This document shows positions 5,716 to 27,528 of a stretch of DNA of 40,116 nt, in pieces. The DNA comes from a bacterium (GTDB lineage: Bacteria; Patescibacteriota; Doudnabacteria; UBA920; VMFF01), in assembly GCA_021842385.1 (NCBI GenBank), contig JAKCAE010000011.1:1-40116 (forward strand). Direction: 5' to 3'. The notes below the pieces were generated by a model. It was not told the origin of the DNA, searched no databases, and saw only the letters and a list, made by a program, of their open reading frames with translations. The translations under genes and the position numbers were made by a program. Each line of letters begins with the position of its first letter. Position 1 is the first letter of the stretch.

Positions 5716-6579
5716 TTAAGAGGCTTTCGCAAGAAAATCTTTAAGACTCATATATAGCTTAAACCACTGTTCCAAAGAAAGCTCCTGTGGCCTTGCTTTT
5801 GAGTCCACCAAAGAGGCCTCTAACGCCTTTAAAAGAGTTGTTTCTTCCAATCCCAGGTTGTTTTTAAGAGTATTATGGATTTGTTTTCTCTTGCCAGCAA
5901 AAGCTGCTTTAACAAGCCTGAAAAACTCTTTTTCTGAAACATTGAATTTAGGTTTTGCAAGCATGTCTAAGACGAGAATCGCTGAATCAACTTTTGGAGA
6001 TGGAAAAAAGTCTGACTTTGGAACAAAACCTACGATCCTGGGGTTAGAAAAAAGCTGTACTGAAATTGCCAAAATGCTTAAATCCCCTGCTTTTGCTGTA
6101 ATCCTTTGAGCAACCTCTTTCTGCATCAGCAAAACAATCTTAGAAGGTCTGTTTTTAGCAGTGAGTAACATTTCAACAATCTTTCCAGTAATGTAGTATG
6201 GAATATTAGCAACAACTTTGTAACCAGGCTTTAATTCTTGCTGAAAATTAAAATGAGTGATGTCTGCAAAAACTAACTTAACGTTGGCTTTTGATTTCGG
6301 AGTTTTAGAATGCGTTTGTAAATGCTCCCCTAACTGATCTTTTAAAATCGGAAAGTATCGTTGATCCTTTTCTACTGCCAAAACATTAGCTCCTGTTTCA
6401 GAAAGGAGTTTTGTTAAATTTCCAATCCCAGAACCAATCTCTAAAACATCATCACCAGCAGAAAGTTCAGCAGCTGAAACTATTTCCCTCAAAGCATCTT
6501 CATTGATTAAAAAATTCTGTCCTAAAAGGTCATTTGGTCTAAACTTGTACTTTGCAAGCAGTTCCTTAATCTCTCTCAT
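5716..6579 (-). CDS. rsmA: 16S rRNA m6,2A dimethyltransferase
   Basis: LGQNFL, VLEIGSGIG, VVANIPYYIT, FFPSPKVDSA motifs. Confidence 0.97.
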   Translation of the reverse strand: MREIKELLAKYKFRPNDLLGQNFLINEDALREIVSAAELSAGDDVLEIGSGIGNLTKLLSETGANVLAVEKDQRYFPILKDQLGEHLQTHSKTPKSKANVKLVFADITHFNFQQELKPGYKVVANIPYYITGKIVEMLLTAKNRPSKIVLLMQKEVAQRITAKAGDLSILAISVQLFSNPRIVGFVPKSDFFPSPKVDSAILVLDMLAKPKFNVSEKEFFRLVKAAFAGKRKQIHNTLKNNLGLEETTLLKALEASLVDSKARPQELSLEQWFKLYMSLKDFLAKAS

Positions 6580-7121
6580 ATTTCTACAGTCCTTACTTCC
6601 AAATTAGAAATGTTTCCTATGAGCACACCGGTGATATAGAAATACAGGACGCGTATAACGCCCTCACTTGTAACTAACAAAATAGGCTTGTCGTTACCGG
6701 CATTTTCAAGTTTAACACGTTCCAAAAATTCAACGACTCTTCTTGTGAAATGCTTAACATTTTCTCCACCAATATCTGAATAGTCAAACTGCAGGGCATA
6801 ATCTTTTTCCAAAGTATGACCGGGATATTTTTCTTCTGCCTCTTTCCAACTTAAACCAGAACAATCTCCGTAATCGCGCTCATTAACATCAGAATCGTAA
6901 ACAACAGGAAGATTTAATGTTTCATTAATCAAAGCAACGGTTTGTTTAACCCGCAGCAAATCTCCACCATATATTTTAACAATATCCTTAGGTAATCTCT
7001 TGCCCAAATCACGCACTAAATCAGCACCCTTAGGATCCAAGGGTTCATTTGAACGAATACCGTTTAAAAGACCTTTTTCGTTCATCTTTGTCAGTCCATG
7101 TCTAACCATTATTAACTGCAT
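6576..7121 (-). CDS. Histidine phosphatase (phosphoglycerate mutase-like) family protein
   Basis: Start re-assigned to MQLIMVRHG (7121); RHG, NERDYG, GGE motifs; the track's upstream extension overlaps a terminator and the tRNA-like gene. Confidence 0.88.
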   Translation of the reverse strand: MQLIMVRHGLTKMNEKGLLNGIRSNEPLDPKGADLVRDLGKRLPKDIVKIYGGDLLRVKQTVALINETLNLPVVYDSDVNERDYGDCSGLSWKEAEEKYPGHTLEKDYALQFDYSDIGGENVKHFTRRVVEFLERVKLENAGNDKPILLVTSEGVIRVLYFYITGVLIGNISNLEVRTVEI

Positions 7122-7137
7122 ACATACATCATACCAA

Positions 7138-7170
7138 ATACAAAACCGCCTGTAGAGGCGGCTTTTTGTA
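7138..7170 (-). terminator. Intrinsic terminator downstream of the tRNA-like gene
   Basis: aaaaccgcct-gtag-aggcggcttttt inverted repeat with A/T tracts. Confidence 0.7.
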
Positions 7171-7240
7171 TTCTTTGGGGTAATTCCCCGGAAACAGCTT
7201 ACCATTAACACAATACCAAGAAGAATTAAAATAGTCAAAG

Positions 7241-7316
7241 TGGTGGACGGGAGGAGAATCGAACTCCCAAAGAAACAGATGGTAAGCCATTTCCACACAC
7301 CAGTGTTAGCCCGCCC
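7241..7316 (-). tRNA. Non-canonical tRNA / tRNA-like RNA, 76 nt, Ala-type acceptor
   Basis: GGGCGGG/CCCGTCC acceptor with G3-U70, A73 and encoded CCA; T arm GGGAG-TTCGATT-CTCCT; D arm ACAC-TGGT-GTGT; no 7-nt anticodon loop. Confidence 0.75.
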
Positions 7317-7361
7317 ATAACCGACAAGCTAACACATCAAGATTAAACAAAGATTAACTAA

Positions 7362-9467
7362 TTAAAACCTTCCCACGATCTTGAAATCGATCTTTTCTTC
7401 TGGCAATGCTTTTAATATTCTGGATGGCGGAAAACTTTGTACTTGTCCAAAGAGTCTTCTTGATTGCGCATAGATTAAATACAGGTTTCTTCTGGCTCTG
7501 GTCATGCCAACATATGCCAAACGAACCTCCTCTGAAAGCTCTGATGGATTTAACAAGGAACGCGAATGCGGCAAGATTCCTTCTTCCAAACCAATCAAAA
7601 ATACTGTATCAAACTCCAAACCCTTTGCTTGATGCAAACTCATGAAAGTAACAGCGTCCTTGTTGTCCTTCATGTTATCAATCTCTGTCATCAGGGCTAC
7701 TTCTTCTAAAAACTGCTCCAAACCTTCCTGCCAATTTAAGTTCTGATATTTTGCAGCAACGTTAAAAAGTTCTTCAATGTTCTGCCAGCGATTCTCACCC
7801 TCTTCAGTACCATCACGCAACCATGCTTCATAGCCGCTTTTTTTCAAAACCAAACGCATCAAAGAAAGAATGTTTTCAGAAACATCAAACAAAGTAAATT
7901 CTTCAAGAAGCAAAAAAAAGCCTTGTACTGCGTTGAATTGTTTTGGCGGCAAGATAATATCTGCAAGATCAACTCTAAACTTCGCTAAATCCCCTTCTGA
8001 ATTAAAAACAAAATCTTTCAAAACCTGGTATGACTTTTCACCAATGCCTCTTGCTGGTTCATTAATAACCCGCTTTAAAGAGACAAGGTCGCGATAGTTG
8101 CTGACAAGCCTTAAATATGCCACAGCGTCCTTAATTTCCTTGCGCTGATAGAACTTAAGACCGCCAACAATCTGATACGGAATTTCTGCCTGCAAAAAGA
8201 CTTCCTCTAAAGCCCTTGATTGAGCGTGTGTTCTGTACAAAACCGCATACTTGTTCAAAGTATCATGATCCTTAGAAAGCCTGGGTACTGAAAACATGTT
8301 AATCGGGGTTCGCGCTGAAAGCTTTTGTTTCTTTAAAAAATGATCCAGGATTGAATATGTTTTAACAGGTTCTTCAAAATCAGGGATGCTTTCAGATTCA
8401 TAAACCAGATCATCTTTTGAATTGCCGCCTGCTTTTGCAATGATTGTTTTTGCAACGATTTTTGCTTCCTCAACCTCATCCTCTACTTCTAAAAGCTTAG
8501 TCTTTGCGCCCTCTTCATTTTCTGTCCACAAAGTTTTTGGTTTCTGTTCCTTGTTAATCTGTATGACCTCAGAAGCAACAGAAAGAATATTCTTTGTTGA
8601 CCTATAATTTTGTTCAAGCTTAACAATTAAAGCATCAGGAAAACTCTCTTCAAAACTCAAAATGTTCCTTAAATTAGAACCCCTGAAACCATAGATTGCT
8701 TGAGCATCATCACCAACAACAAACAGATTCCTTAAAGCAACATTTTTCTTTGTACCAATAGCCAACAAAAAAAGAAGCATAAACTGAGCATGGTTTGTAT
8801 CCTGATATTCATCAACAAGAATGTATTTAAAAATACTTTGATATTTAGACAAGACCTCTGGAAAGTTCTGTAAAATCTTAACAGTGAGCATTAACAAGTC
8901 ATCAAAATCCAAAGAGTTTTGCTTGAAAAGATAATTCTGGTATTCAAGATATACCTCAGAAACCATATTCAAAACATATTTATCAATCCCCAAATCAAGT
9001 TCTTCTGGGGTCTGTAAAACATTTTTAGCTGCAGAAATATAGTTTTTAAAAAAGTTGGGAGGAAACTTTGCGCCAAAGTTTTTTTGAACACATATCTCTT
9101 TCAATATTTTGTTTTGATCATCATCATCAACAATGACAAACCCTTTTGTGTAACCAAGCGCTTGAATCTCTTGTCTTAAAATCCTGGCGCAAACTGAATG
9201 AAATGTTCCCATTGTTGGCATACCAATATTCGGAAACAAACTTTGAACCCTGCCTTGCATTTCTTTTGCAGCCTTGTTTGTAAAAGTCAAAGCAAGAATA
9301 TTTTCAGACTTGAACAACCCTTCAGAAATTAAATACGCGATGCGATGCGTTAAGACCTTAGTCTTACCGCTGCCTGCGCCTGCCAAAACTAAAACCGGCC
9401 CTGCTGGGGCGGTAACTGCTTGTTTCTGCCGATCATTTAAACCCTGCAAAATTTTTTCTGATTTCAT
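7362..9467 (-). CDS. pcrA: ATP-dependent DNA helicase PcrA/UvrD
   Basis: AGAGSGKT, TFTNKAA, VDEYQD, VGDDAQAIYGFRG, QNYRST, HQAKGLEF, YVGMTRAR. Confidence 0.95.
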   Translation of the reverse strand: MKSEKILQGLNDRQKQAVTAPAGPVLVLAGAGSGKTKVLTHRIAYLISEGLFKSENILALTFTNKAAKEMQGRVQSLFPNIGMPTMGTFHSVCARILRQEIQALGYTKGFVIVDDDDQNKILKEICVQKNFGAKFPPNFFKNYISAAKNVLQTPEELDLGIDKYVLNMVSEVYLEYQNYLFKQNSLDFDDLLMLTVKILQNFPEVLSKYQSIFKYILVDEYQDTNHAQFMLLFLLAIGTKKNVALRNLFVVGDDAQAIYGFRGSNLRNILSFEESFPDALIVKLEQNYRSTKNILSVASEVIQINKEQKPKTLWTENEEGAKTKLLEVEDEVEEAKIVAKTIIAKAGGNSKDDLVYESESIPDFEEPVKTYSILDHFLKKQKLSARTPINMFSVPRLSKDHDTLNKYAVLYRTHAQSRALEEVFLQAEIPYQIVGGLKFYQRKEIKDAVAYLRLVSNYRDLVSLKRVINEPARGIGEKSYQVLKDFVFNSEGDLAKFRVDLADIILPPKQFNAVQGFFLLLEEFTLFDVSENILSLMRLVLKKSGYEAWLRDGTEEGENRWQNIEELFNVAAKYQNLNWQEGLEQFLEEVALMTEIDNMKDNKDAVTFMSLHQAKGLEFDTVFLIGLEEGILPHSRSLLNPSELSEEVRLAYVGMTRARRNLYLIYAQSRRLFGQVQSFPPSRILKALPEEKIDFKIVGRF

Positions 9468-27143: not shown

Positions 27144-27528
27144 TGGTGGAGATGGCGGGAGTTAAACCCGCGTCCAGAAAAGGTTCCCTTAACAATTATT
27201 CACAAGCTTAGCGCGCTTTAAAGCCTTGTAGCAACAAACGCGCGAACTAACCACAAGGTTTAGTTTACAAAGATTCTTTCAGACGCGTAAACCAAACATC
27301 TGAATATATCCTGCAAATGAGGTGCGTGATCTTTTGTCGCAGGAAAACAAAAGGCGCACGTTCTTACCTAAAGATTAAGCAAGAACAAGTGAAGGAAACG
27401 CAAAAGCGTTCTTCACCTTAGCAATGAAATTGCCAATTATGATTGTGCTCAAGAATATTACGAGATTTTGAGCATACTCGGCTTGCATATTTTTAAAGGT
27501 CACTTCCCTGTCAAAATCCGGCATCCCC
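27144..27528 (-). ncRNA. ssrA: tmRNA (385 nt); tag (A)GNFIAKVKNAFAFPSLVLA*
   Basis: 5' GGGGATG..TTTTGACAG; 3' GCGGG-TTTAACT-CCCGC-CATCTCC-A-CCA with G3-U70; tag ORF 27434-27375 after ATAATT; smpB present in window. Confidence 0.93.

Follow-up and report, generated by a model that had tools for sequence, protein, structure and literature searches.

A conserved tRNA-Ala-like RNA and its cognate antisense small RNA in Patescibacteria

Contig JAKCAE010000011.1 of the patescibacterial genome assembly GCA_021842385.1, analysed here over its whole length of 40,116 nucleotides (nt) and referred to as the window, carries on its minus strand, at positions 7241-7316, a 76-nt gene with the acceptor end of an alanine tRNA and a lower half that is not that of a standard tRNA. 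What kind of RNA this tRNA-like element (TLE) is, whether it is a working gene or a relic, and what it may do in the cell are the questions raised by this locus. The window is contig C3 of a genome, denoted G000, which comprises 565,066 bp in 45 contigs and is estimated to be 90% complete.

The tRNA-Ala-like element and its relatives

The TLE was characterised by its sequence, its RNAfold structure, two covariance models (R1 and R2) and the covariation within its family. On the minus strand it reads GGGCGGG CUA ACAC-UGGU-GUGU GGAAAUGG-CUUACCAU-CUGUUUCU UU GGGAG-UUCGAUU-CUCCU CCCGUCC A CCA, exactly as given in the initial annotation, which had pointed to its unusual cloverleaf. The top half consists of a 7-bp acceptor stem with the pair G3-U70, followed by A73 and an encoded CCA, and of a canonical T arm (GGGAG/UUCGAUU/CUCCU) in which a 5-bp stem containing G49:U65 carries a T-loop; both arms and the CCA, described earlier as intact, are present in the sequence and in the RNAfold structure alike. 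The lower half differs from the tRNA standard. Position 8 is a C, the D hairpin (ACAC/UGGU/GUGU) has 4 bp and a 4-nt loop, the ‘anticodon’ arm is formed by the 8-nt loop CUUACCAU closed by an 8-bp stem with three G-U pairs, and the variable region is 2 nt long. The loop contains no alanine anticodon (NGC). The minimum-free-energy and centroid structures predicted by RNAfold both correspond to the cloverleaf, at -26.4 kcal/mol. Relative to shuffled sequences this energy is only mildly unusual (z = -1.87, with 9 of 200 shuffles as stable), and the case for a fold not due to chance therefore rests on the comparison of relatives.

The element is passed over by tRNA finders, from which a low or undetermined result had been expected. 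ARAGORN, applied to the whole window, called no tRNA at 7241-7316, and the sole gene it reported was the tmRNA at 27144-27528. At gathering thresholds Rfam (15) returned the tmRNA only and no family matching the TLE, while in a permissive scan of positions 7150-7420 the best match was tRNA-Sec with 31.1 bits (gathering score 47, E = 1.5e-4). No tmRNA model matched the TLE; in the permissive scan tmRNA_permuted reached 9.6 bits (E = 5.8) across the trailer. The initial annotation had separated the element from the tmRNA, and the tmRNA models indeed match the site at 27144-27528 only. A local hairpin stands in the TLE where tmRNA has helix 2. With the two dedicated covariance models the element scores 106.8 bits (R1) and 84.9 bits (R2).

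In a BLAST search of 61 relatives the sole full-length match, with 95% identity, was found in a genome of the same genus (G004), and a 48-nt match in a genome (G028) of another family of the order. Relative to the window, the G004 copy carries C8U, a compensatory replacement of A11-U22 by G-C in the D stem, and U28C, by which a U-G pair has become C-G. The G028 copy shows a compensatory change at 5:68, a 9-bp stem and the loop CUCACCAU. A MAFFT alignment of the three sequences misaligned the indel-rich middle part and was replaced by model-based alignments. Model R1 was built from two close copies and found relatives in many genomes of the order; model R2, built from 26 of these relatives, enlarged the set. 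Places scoring about 50 bits or more were re-aligned, giving 98 distinct members and one ordinary tRNA-Gly.

The secondary structure is strongly conserved throughout this set. In the 26-row alignment 96.2% of the structure cells are paired, against 47-64% when the partners are slid by 1-3 columns, and in the 99 distinct rows (98 members and the tRNA-Gly) the corresponding figures are 95.0% and 42-60%. Changes on both sides of a pair occur in 21 of the 24 pairs, and none of 500 shuffles reached any of the measures observed in the 99 rows, where 99.4% of the cells are paired in the acceptor helix and 99.0% in the T helix. The alignments are fitted to the models and the members are related, so that these figures lean towards the structure and the members cannot be counted as independent cases; even so, the slid controls pair far less often. 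The earlier argument that preserved pairing speaks against simple decay is thus borne out both by the compensatory changes in G004 and by the covariation of the family.

The determinants of alanine identity are nearly invariant. Pairs G1-C72 and G2-C71 are each found in 97 of the 98 members, G3:U70 in 95, A73 in 94 and CCA in 97, which agrees with the alanine identity assigned earlier to the window copy, and a U precedes the element at position -1 in 92. The pair 49:65 is G:U in 66 and A:U in 23 of the 99 rows, and a GG is present in the D loop in 89 of them. The lengths of the elements (70-76 nt), of the anticodon-arm stem (7-9 bp) and of the variable region (2-4 nt) vary within narrow limits. 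Outside the family, the nearest matches of R1 and R2 are canonical tRNA-Ala genes and not tmRNA. The comparison of relatives shows, at the level of sequence and predicted structure, that the TLE is a conserved alanine-identity tRNA-like RNA, a derivative of tRNA-Ala rather than a decaying tRNA.

It follows that a decaying tRNA-Ala pseudogene or an integration-site remnant, to which the silence of the tRNA finders and the resemblance of the 3' part to tRNA-Ala might point, has next to no probability. This reading is contradicted by the compensatory changes that keep all four helices in 98 distinct relatives, by the near-invariance of the identity elements and by the co-evolution of a partner gene described below; moreover, G000 retains three normal tRNA-Ala genes. 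The 3' part of the TLE matches tRNA-Ala(GGC) with just 85% identity over 27 nt, and this weak resemblance, together with the conservation of the whole cloverleaf, indicates that the element is not an att-site remnant, the outcome that could have overturned the initial annotation.

Six distinct TLE modules are encoded by G000. Besides the window copy (C3:7241-7316, minus strand), they are located at C11:28185-28257 (plus), C42:9908-9977 (minus), C15:15536-15607 (minus), C13:27247-27317 (plus) and C4:1254-1325 (plus), and all five come with a loop, a promoter, a complementary small RNA and a terminator of their own. The C4 copy is called tRNA-Val(CAC) by ARAGORN, probably a mis-annotation, and members of the family can therefore enter genome annotations as ordinary tRNAs.

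A predicted gene for a cognate small RNA

The TLE of the window is directly followed by a second, predicted gene on the same strand. A promoter-like site (P2, 7210-7238, minus strand), identified by a consensus scan, directly adjoins the ACCA end of the TLE and consists of a -35 box TTGACT (7238-7233), a 17-nt spacer and a TG-extended -10 box TATTGT (7215-7210). Downstream of it lies the stretch AUGGUAAGCUGUUUCCG (7189-7205, minus), the predicted 5' seed of a partner RNA, which forms 17 contiguous pairs, G-U pairs included, with TLE positions 22-38, that is, with the 5' strand of the anticodon stem and the loop. A small hairpin, GGGGAAUUACCCC (7177-7189, minus), recognised from sequence and fold and identical in G004, comes next, followed by an intrinsic terminator (7136-7165, minus; terminator scan) composed of an A-tract, a GCCGCC/GGCGGC stem (7165-7142) and a U tail. 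The predicted small RNA extends from about 7205 to 7136 and is about 70 nt long. Folded alone, it is predicted to leave its seed single-stranded, and the predicted heterodimer with the TLE has an energy of -61.6 kcal/mol, against -51.4 kcal/mol for the two RNAs apart.

The same anatomy was found at all of the loci inspected first, where ACCA is followed within a few bases by a TTGACA/TTGAAA box, about 17 nt, a TATAAT-like box, 5-8 nt and the complementary stretch, after which come a small hairpin, an A-rich linker and an intrinsic terminator. In 91 modules the P2-type promoter has on average 10.1 of 12 consensus matches, against 7.2 in shuffled sequences; the TG extension is present in 55 of these modules, and in 79 the distance from the end of the -10 box to the seed is 5-8 nt. 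In 85 of the 91 a terminator-like site is found downstream of the seed, which gives a predicted RNA with a median length of 69 nt (range 52-82). Promoters and terminators were called as consensus matches. The equally long region upstream of the TLEs yields a best promoter match of 7.6 of 12 on average, against 7.2 when shuffled. In the window, the leader that separates the pcrA stop codon from the TLE (7317-7361, minus strand), delimited from the sequence and ending in the U at position -1, contains no near-consensus sigma-70 promoter; its stretch GUGUUAGC could pair with TLE positions 7-14.

Complementarity to the TLE is specific to the cognate partner. Among the 98 TLEs, 95 have in their trailer a duplex of -15 kcal/mol or lower with the 5' strand and loop of the anticodon arm, beginning in 65 of the 95 at 35-40 nt after ACCA; only two elements with intact identity lack such a duplex, one of which has a 16-nt match further downstream. 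The longest contiguous duplex averages 14.75 nt within a module (24 modules) and 8.66 nt in 546 cross-locus pairs. In the 75 modules with 8-nt loops, each of 13 positions, from stem position -7 to loop position 6, is paired in 66-75 modules through two to six types of base pair, four to six at the freely varying positions; pairing at the latter falls to 39-61% when the partners are swapped. Complementarity to the D arm is modestly above the swapped controls (-11.4 against -9.2 kcal/mol), and that to the acceptor strand is not above them. Whole-length RNAduplex spans were not used as evidence. The TLE of the window is thus, as shown by comparison of the predicted modules, the first gene of a two-gene, RNA-only module in which the partner co-evolves with the TLE.

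The arrangement of the two genes is not fixed. In 151 genomes drawn evenly from the phylum, family-level matches were found in a few genomes outside the order. One of these (G174) has a tandem module as in the window. In two genomes of other classes, at G175:C2 (L267) and G229:C11 (L266), a terminator follows the TLE and the partner is encoded convergently on the opposite strand, where it shares this bidirectional terminator and has its own -35 and -10 boxes just before the seed. Since the partner gene may be tandem or convergent, the conserved relation is one between two RNAs rather than a read-through fold or a DNA repeat. The G229 element, which has the 8-nt loop CUAGUCAC, has kept a normal tRNA D arm, and this points to descent from tRNA-Ala and not from tmRNA.

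These observations also bear on the view that the locus is an imperfect inverted repeat acting as DNA, either serving a recombinase or marking a mobile element, and that its RNA folds are incidental. Because the seed equals the reverse complement of a segment of the TLE, the locus is indeed an inverted repeat, and both copy number and position vary between genomes. The complementarity, however, relies on G-U pairs, which are functional only in RNA, so that it appears to act in RNA; a consensus promoter is positioned for transcription to begin precisely at the seed, with a terminator downstream, the four-helix cloverleaf covaries, and no recombinase is a regular neighbour. A role as a DNA repeat is accordingly considered very improbable.

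The initial annotation had proposed a search for homologues at the pcrA locus, and these were found in part. The complete module is kept in G004. In two related genomes, at G003:C15 (L189) and G002:C6 (L190), the TLE has been lost and the promoter, small RNA and terminator remain in the gap from the stop codon of pcrA to the gene for the histidine phosphatase; the small RNA there is complementary over about 30 nt to the D arm and anticodon arm of the ancestral element. A pattern search allowing three mismatches found no partner TLE elsewhere in G002 or G003.

The persistence of the small RNA without its TLE suggests another explanation, in which the effector is the small RNA, acting as a regulator by base pairing, and the TLE is its sponge, its decoy or a scaffold for its stabilisation or processing. 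In its anatomy the small RNA resembles a trans-acting regulator, with a free 5' seed, a hairpin and a terminator, and it has the stronger promoter of the two genes. Constraint by mRNA targets would hardly be expected to leave seeds that vary freely and always track their own partner, and a sponge has no reason to keep a perfect AlaRS identity set. Five seeds of G000 were tested and gave isolated 12-nt matches only, at five sites in the genome, the chance expectation for which was not worked out. Altogether, an effector role of the small RNA is regarded as improbable. Regulation of genuine tRNAs was considered as well and dismissed: no consistent complementarity was found between the seeds and the anticodon arms of the 37 tRNAs called by ARAGORN in G000.

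A further feature was noticed by eye in the spacers between ACCA and the seed in genus g6 (e.g. L032, L033, L041, L043, L047 and L053), where two small hairpins seem to covary. The first is built on CTTGAAAAAG at the -35 box, and the second encloses the -10 box, its 3' strand running into the seed. Such hairpins could form only in transcripts that read through, or in the DNA itself.

Possible function of the two-RNA module

The loop to which the small RNA is complementary retains several features of an anticodon loop. Among the 98 elements it is most often 8 nt long (79 elements) and otherwise 9 nt (11), 7 nt (7) or 10 nt (1). In the 79 loops of 8 nt, position 2 is U in 75, position 4 is a purine in all, position 6 is C in 74 and position 7 is A in 77. 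A UNR U-turn motif is present in 97 of the 98 loops and YUNR in 75. The triplet preceding the A in the 79 loops is GAC in 23, GUC in 21, ACC in 17, GCC and AUC in four each and AGC in three, with a few others; its middle base is A (28), U (25), C (22) or G (4), a G in this place corresponding to an alanine anticodon. The loop triplets differ from alanine anticodons by a single base. Read as anticodons with an extra base after U33, they would match Val, Asp and Gly codons. Triplet decoding with an 8-nt anticodon loop is described for yeast mitochondrial tRNA-Thr(UAG) in PMC7609411. According to PMC6562991, U-turn loops, first seen in the anticodon loops of tRNAs, speed the pairing of sense and antisense RNAs, for instance in hok/Sok.

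The initial annotation had suggested a non-decoding alanine carrier (for cell-wall or lipid aminoacylation or for ribosome rescue), a tRNA decoy or a frameshift-type tRNA, an interpretation that receives partial support here. The most likely single reading, put forward tentatively, is that the module combines an alanine-charged miscoding tRNA with a cognate anti-anticodon antidote RNA, comparable to a toxin-antitoxin pair. Recognition by AlaRS is confined to the acceptor stem, and since the identity set is kept and an AlaRS gene is present in G000, the TLE would be expected to be charged with alanine. The 5' end of the small RNA would dock on the U-turn loop, from which the helix would zip down the stem and displace its 3' strand, so that the anticodon arm would be opened and the TLE inactivated or marked for RNase III, an enzyme for which G000 has a gene. 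Once unmasked, the TLE might affect translation by decoding GUY, GAY or GGY codons with missense or frameshifting results. The small RNA would thus be the antidote of a toxin-antitoxin pair or of a switch for conditional mistranslation. This reading is rated most likely in view of the anticodon-like loop and of five features reminiscent of toxin-antitoxin systems, namely a partner that is nearly always present, promoters of unequal strength, the small RNA left alone in G002 and G003, multiple orthogonal copies in a genome and a patchy distribution.

In a broader form, which is possible and rather more doubtful, Saccharibacteria and some other Patescibacteria would carry sets of orthogonal RNA-only toxin-antidote pairs, each consisting of an alanine-charged missense or frameshifting tRNA for Val, Asp or Gly codons (GUY, GAY, GGY) and a dedicated ‘anti-anticodon’ small RNA by which the anticodon arm is masked and unzipped. 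Loss of transcription, for example upon phage attack or starvation, would then lead to mistranslation across the proteome.

Several points weigh against a miscoding tRNA held by an antidote. The case is built from sequence comparison and predicted folds. The size of the loop varies and the lower half is non-canonical, which makes entry into the ribosome hypothetical, and the conservation of C6-A7 in the loop might reflect no more than a preference of the small RNA for starting with U/G, and not the context of an anticodon. Some modules occupy the same locus in different species, such as S20-PolA in L034, L043 and L044, and vertical inheritance of a useful gene would account for this no less than a selfish pair would. 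The orphan small RNA represents a single event in two related genomes, and the relatedness of family members applies to the counts used here too. Finally, an obligate two-RNA complex with a benign function would explain the near-universal partner equally well.

One benign function is that of an alanine carrier for a non-ribosomal reaction, such as that of a Fem-type peptidoglycan transferase, where the odd lower half would exclude the TLE from the ribosome and the small RNA would regulate its supply. It would account for the strict conservation of the alanine identity set while the anticodon arm varies freely, and possibly for the G:U or A:U pair at 49:65 of the T stem in 89 of the 99 rows. 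A gene of the FemAB family is present in G000, and a dedicated non-proteinogenic tRNA-Gly exists in staphylococci. The staphylococcal donors of the Fem enzymes fold into normal cloverleaves, carry a glycine anticodon and lack an antisense partner; the TLE resembles them as an extra tRNA-type gene with a normal identity set that may be kept from translation. Here, however, FemAB homologues are near-universal, occurring in 141 of 146 genomes of the order, while the TLE family is patchy, with matches at E<=1e-9 in 36, and the transferase does not appear to depend on the TLE. The six orthogonal copies with a dedicated antisense RNA each and the restricted loop triplets would also be left unexplained, so that a carrier role is considered unlikely.

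Alanine identity, the T arm and the reduced D region are shared with the tRNA-like domain of tmRNAs, those lacking a coding part among them, and the TLE might accordingly be a rescue RNA without a coding part that acts with SmpB on stalled ribosomes, the small RNA being its second piece. Some copies even share the acceptor stem of the tmRNA, e.g. the C15 copy with GGGGAUG...CAUCUCCACCA. However, no tmRNA model matches the TLE, the next-best matches of its own models are canonical tRNA-Ala genes, and the relative at L266, from another class, keeps a normal tRNA D arm. The TLE has a closed anticodon-like hairpin, occurs in multiple copies and has neither the helix 2 and pseudoknots of tmRNA nor a tag frame. 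A two-piece tmRNA with its tag frame in the partner RNA was set aside, since inspection by eye revealed no consistent stop-ended reading frame in the partner RNAs. A complete tmRNA is already present in G000, and six copies with different loops would be unexpected. Ribosome rescue therefore has only a slim chance of being the function of the module. An RqcH-type role in alanine tailing is unlikely; no match to NFACT_N (RqcH) above the cut-off was found in G000, which is about 90% complete. T-box-like control of the next gene by the terminator was also rejected, the next gene being often on the opposite strand and the neighbours unrelated.

The tmRNA gene of the window (27144-27528, minus strand) is itself complete and of the one-piece type; it scores 133.8 bits, and its predicted tag is GNFIAKVKNAFAFPSLVLA. 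It has the same acceptor stem as the C15 copy of the TLE, GGGGAUG...CAUCUCCACCA.

Among known systems, the module is most easily compared with type I toxin-antitoxin pairs and with the control pairs of plasmids and transposons (hok/Sok, bsrG/SR4, RNA-IN/RNA-OUT of IS10), which likewise consist of two small units with extended complementarity; in RNA-IN/RNA-OUT a 5' end pairs into a loop. A stronger promoter on the antisense gene and several orthogonal copies per genome are further points in common. So is the presentation of a U-turn (YUNR/UNR) loop by a structured RNA to a single-stranded partner, as outlined in PMC6562991. Unlike in type I pairs, the target is a tRNA-shaped and presumably alanine-charged RNA instead of an mRNA for a toxic peptide, and the antisense RNA comes from a separate tandem or convergent gene and not from the opposite strand of its target.

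Canonical tRNA-Ala and its mistranslating variants share with the TLE the G3:U70 pair, A73, CCA, the acceptor/T minihelix and the elbow, whereas the mini D hairpin, the 7-9-bp stem, the mostly 8-nt loop and the antisense partner set the TLE apart from canonical tRNA-Ala. Variants of tRNA-Ala with non-alanine anticodons, both natural and engineered, are mistranslating tRNAs. If the TLE is indeed a miscoding tRNA with an antidote, the module would also be comparable to the type VIII pairs SdsR/RyeA and CreT/CreA, in which toxin and antidote are both RNA and translation is the target; CreT sequesters a tRNA. There is no likeness to these pairs in sequence or structure and no link to CRISPR, and in the module the putative toxin itself would be the tRNA mimic.

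No description of the TLE family was found in the full-text literature, a search that did not extend to subscription-only papers and closed supplements. A 2022 preprint on TM7x (10.1101/2022.03.25.485537) states that no small RNAs had been validated in that organism. The TLE and its cognate antisense small RNA thus apparently represent a widespread and undescribed family. As a large, strongly conserved, multi-copy family of non-coding RNA it stands irrespective of its function, and it offers natural orthogonal RNA pairs on a scaffold for anticodon-independent aminoacylation. Should the module work as proposed, it would be the first tRNA-type RNA encoded by a cell along with an antisense RNA dedicated to its anticodon arm, and perhaps also the first RNA toxin shaped like a tRNA.

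Genomic context and distribution

In the window the module occupies a 254-nt gap between two protein-coding genes of the same strand. The upstream gene (7362-9467, minus) encodes a UvrD/PcrA-type helicase, identified by a match of Pfam UvrD_C (4.7e-72) to the C-terminal 484 aa, and the downstream gene (6576-7121, minus) a histidine phosphatase (Pfam His_Phos_1, 2.5e-32). Alignment of the latter with its counterparts in G002, G003 and G004 places the likely start at 7121 or 7109 (MQLIMVRHG), and a longer open reading frame (ORF) reaching to 7298 across the RNA genes was taken as spurious. The ORFs that overlap the TLE (7129-7296 and 6576-7298) were likewise discarded as candidates for a toxic peptide, being extensions or overlaps of the downstream gene that are not conserved as such. 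Five datasets, all of them DNA, are listed as containing the locus (window positions 6600-8200); they are mine-drainage metagenomes.

According to ARAGORN, G000 contains 37 tRNA genes, among them three ordinary tRNA-Ala genes (CGC, GGC and UGC), all with an encoded CCA. The list obtained from the 45 contigs includes no tRNA-Asp, Asn, Met, Glu(UUC) or Gln(UUG), which probably reside in the unassembled part of the approximately 90% complete genome. The AlaRS homologue (G000:C38:45000-46376, plus strand) has an open frame of just 628 aa, compared with about 870 aa in the AlaRS of model bacteria, and may lack the C-terminal domain.

The family is patchily distributed within the order. Matches of R2 at E<=1e-9 were obtained in 36 of 146 genomes, four in family f1 and 32 in f2, with none in f3, f4, f5 and f6. 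Seven further genomes have matches with E between 1e-9 and 1.1e-8 that proved family-shaped on inspection, so that the family is present in at least 43 of the 146. Since scores of up to about 50 bits are also reached by ordinary tRNA-Ala genes, the boundary of the family is not sharp. Even in the richest genus, where 20 of 26 genomes reach E<=1e-9, two genomes rated as 100% complete do not. In a pattern scan of public genomes, family-type matches occurred, among the 80 loci listed, only in records titled Candidatus Saccharibacteria; of these listed matches, six are 70-74 nt long and score at least 39 bits, and one is weaker, a sample from which the overall range of the family can hardly be judged.

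The modules have no fixed protein neighbour. No conserved one was found among 41 flanking ORFs scanned with Pfam, and the flanking genes are unrelated housekeeping genes, including those for Pth, a class II aminoacyl-tRNA synthetase, MreB, UvrB, PolA, RsgA, SmpB, ArgRS, SecY, RelA/SpoT, NDK and others. Genes of the toxin-antitoxin type (Gp49, ParE-like, PemK) lie near three loci (3 of the 41 ORFs), two of which are related. The SmpB gene adjoins one module (L042) and does not form a regular neighbourhood.

Long antisense ORFs of 570-782 aa run across the whole module at L046 (G102), L052 (G060) and L053 (G112); they have no Pfam match and were taken as spurious genes. At L262 (G224:C8), about 50-90 nt after the element and past the terminator, a sense fragment ending in ...GGTCCACCA resembles the 3' end of a tRNA-Ala-type gene and may be a 3' fragment displaced by an integration event.

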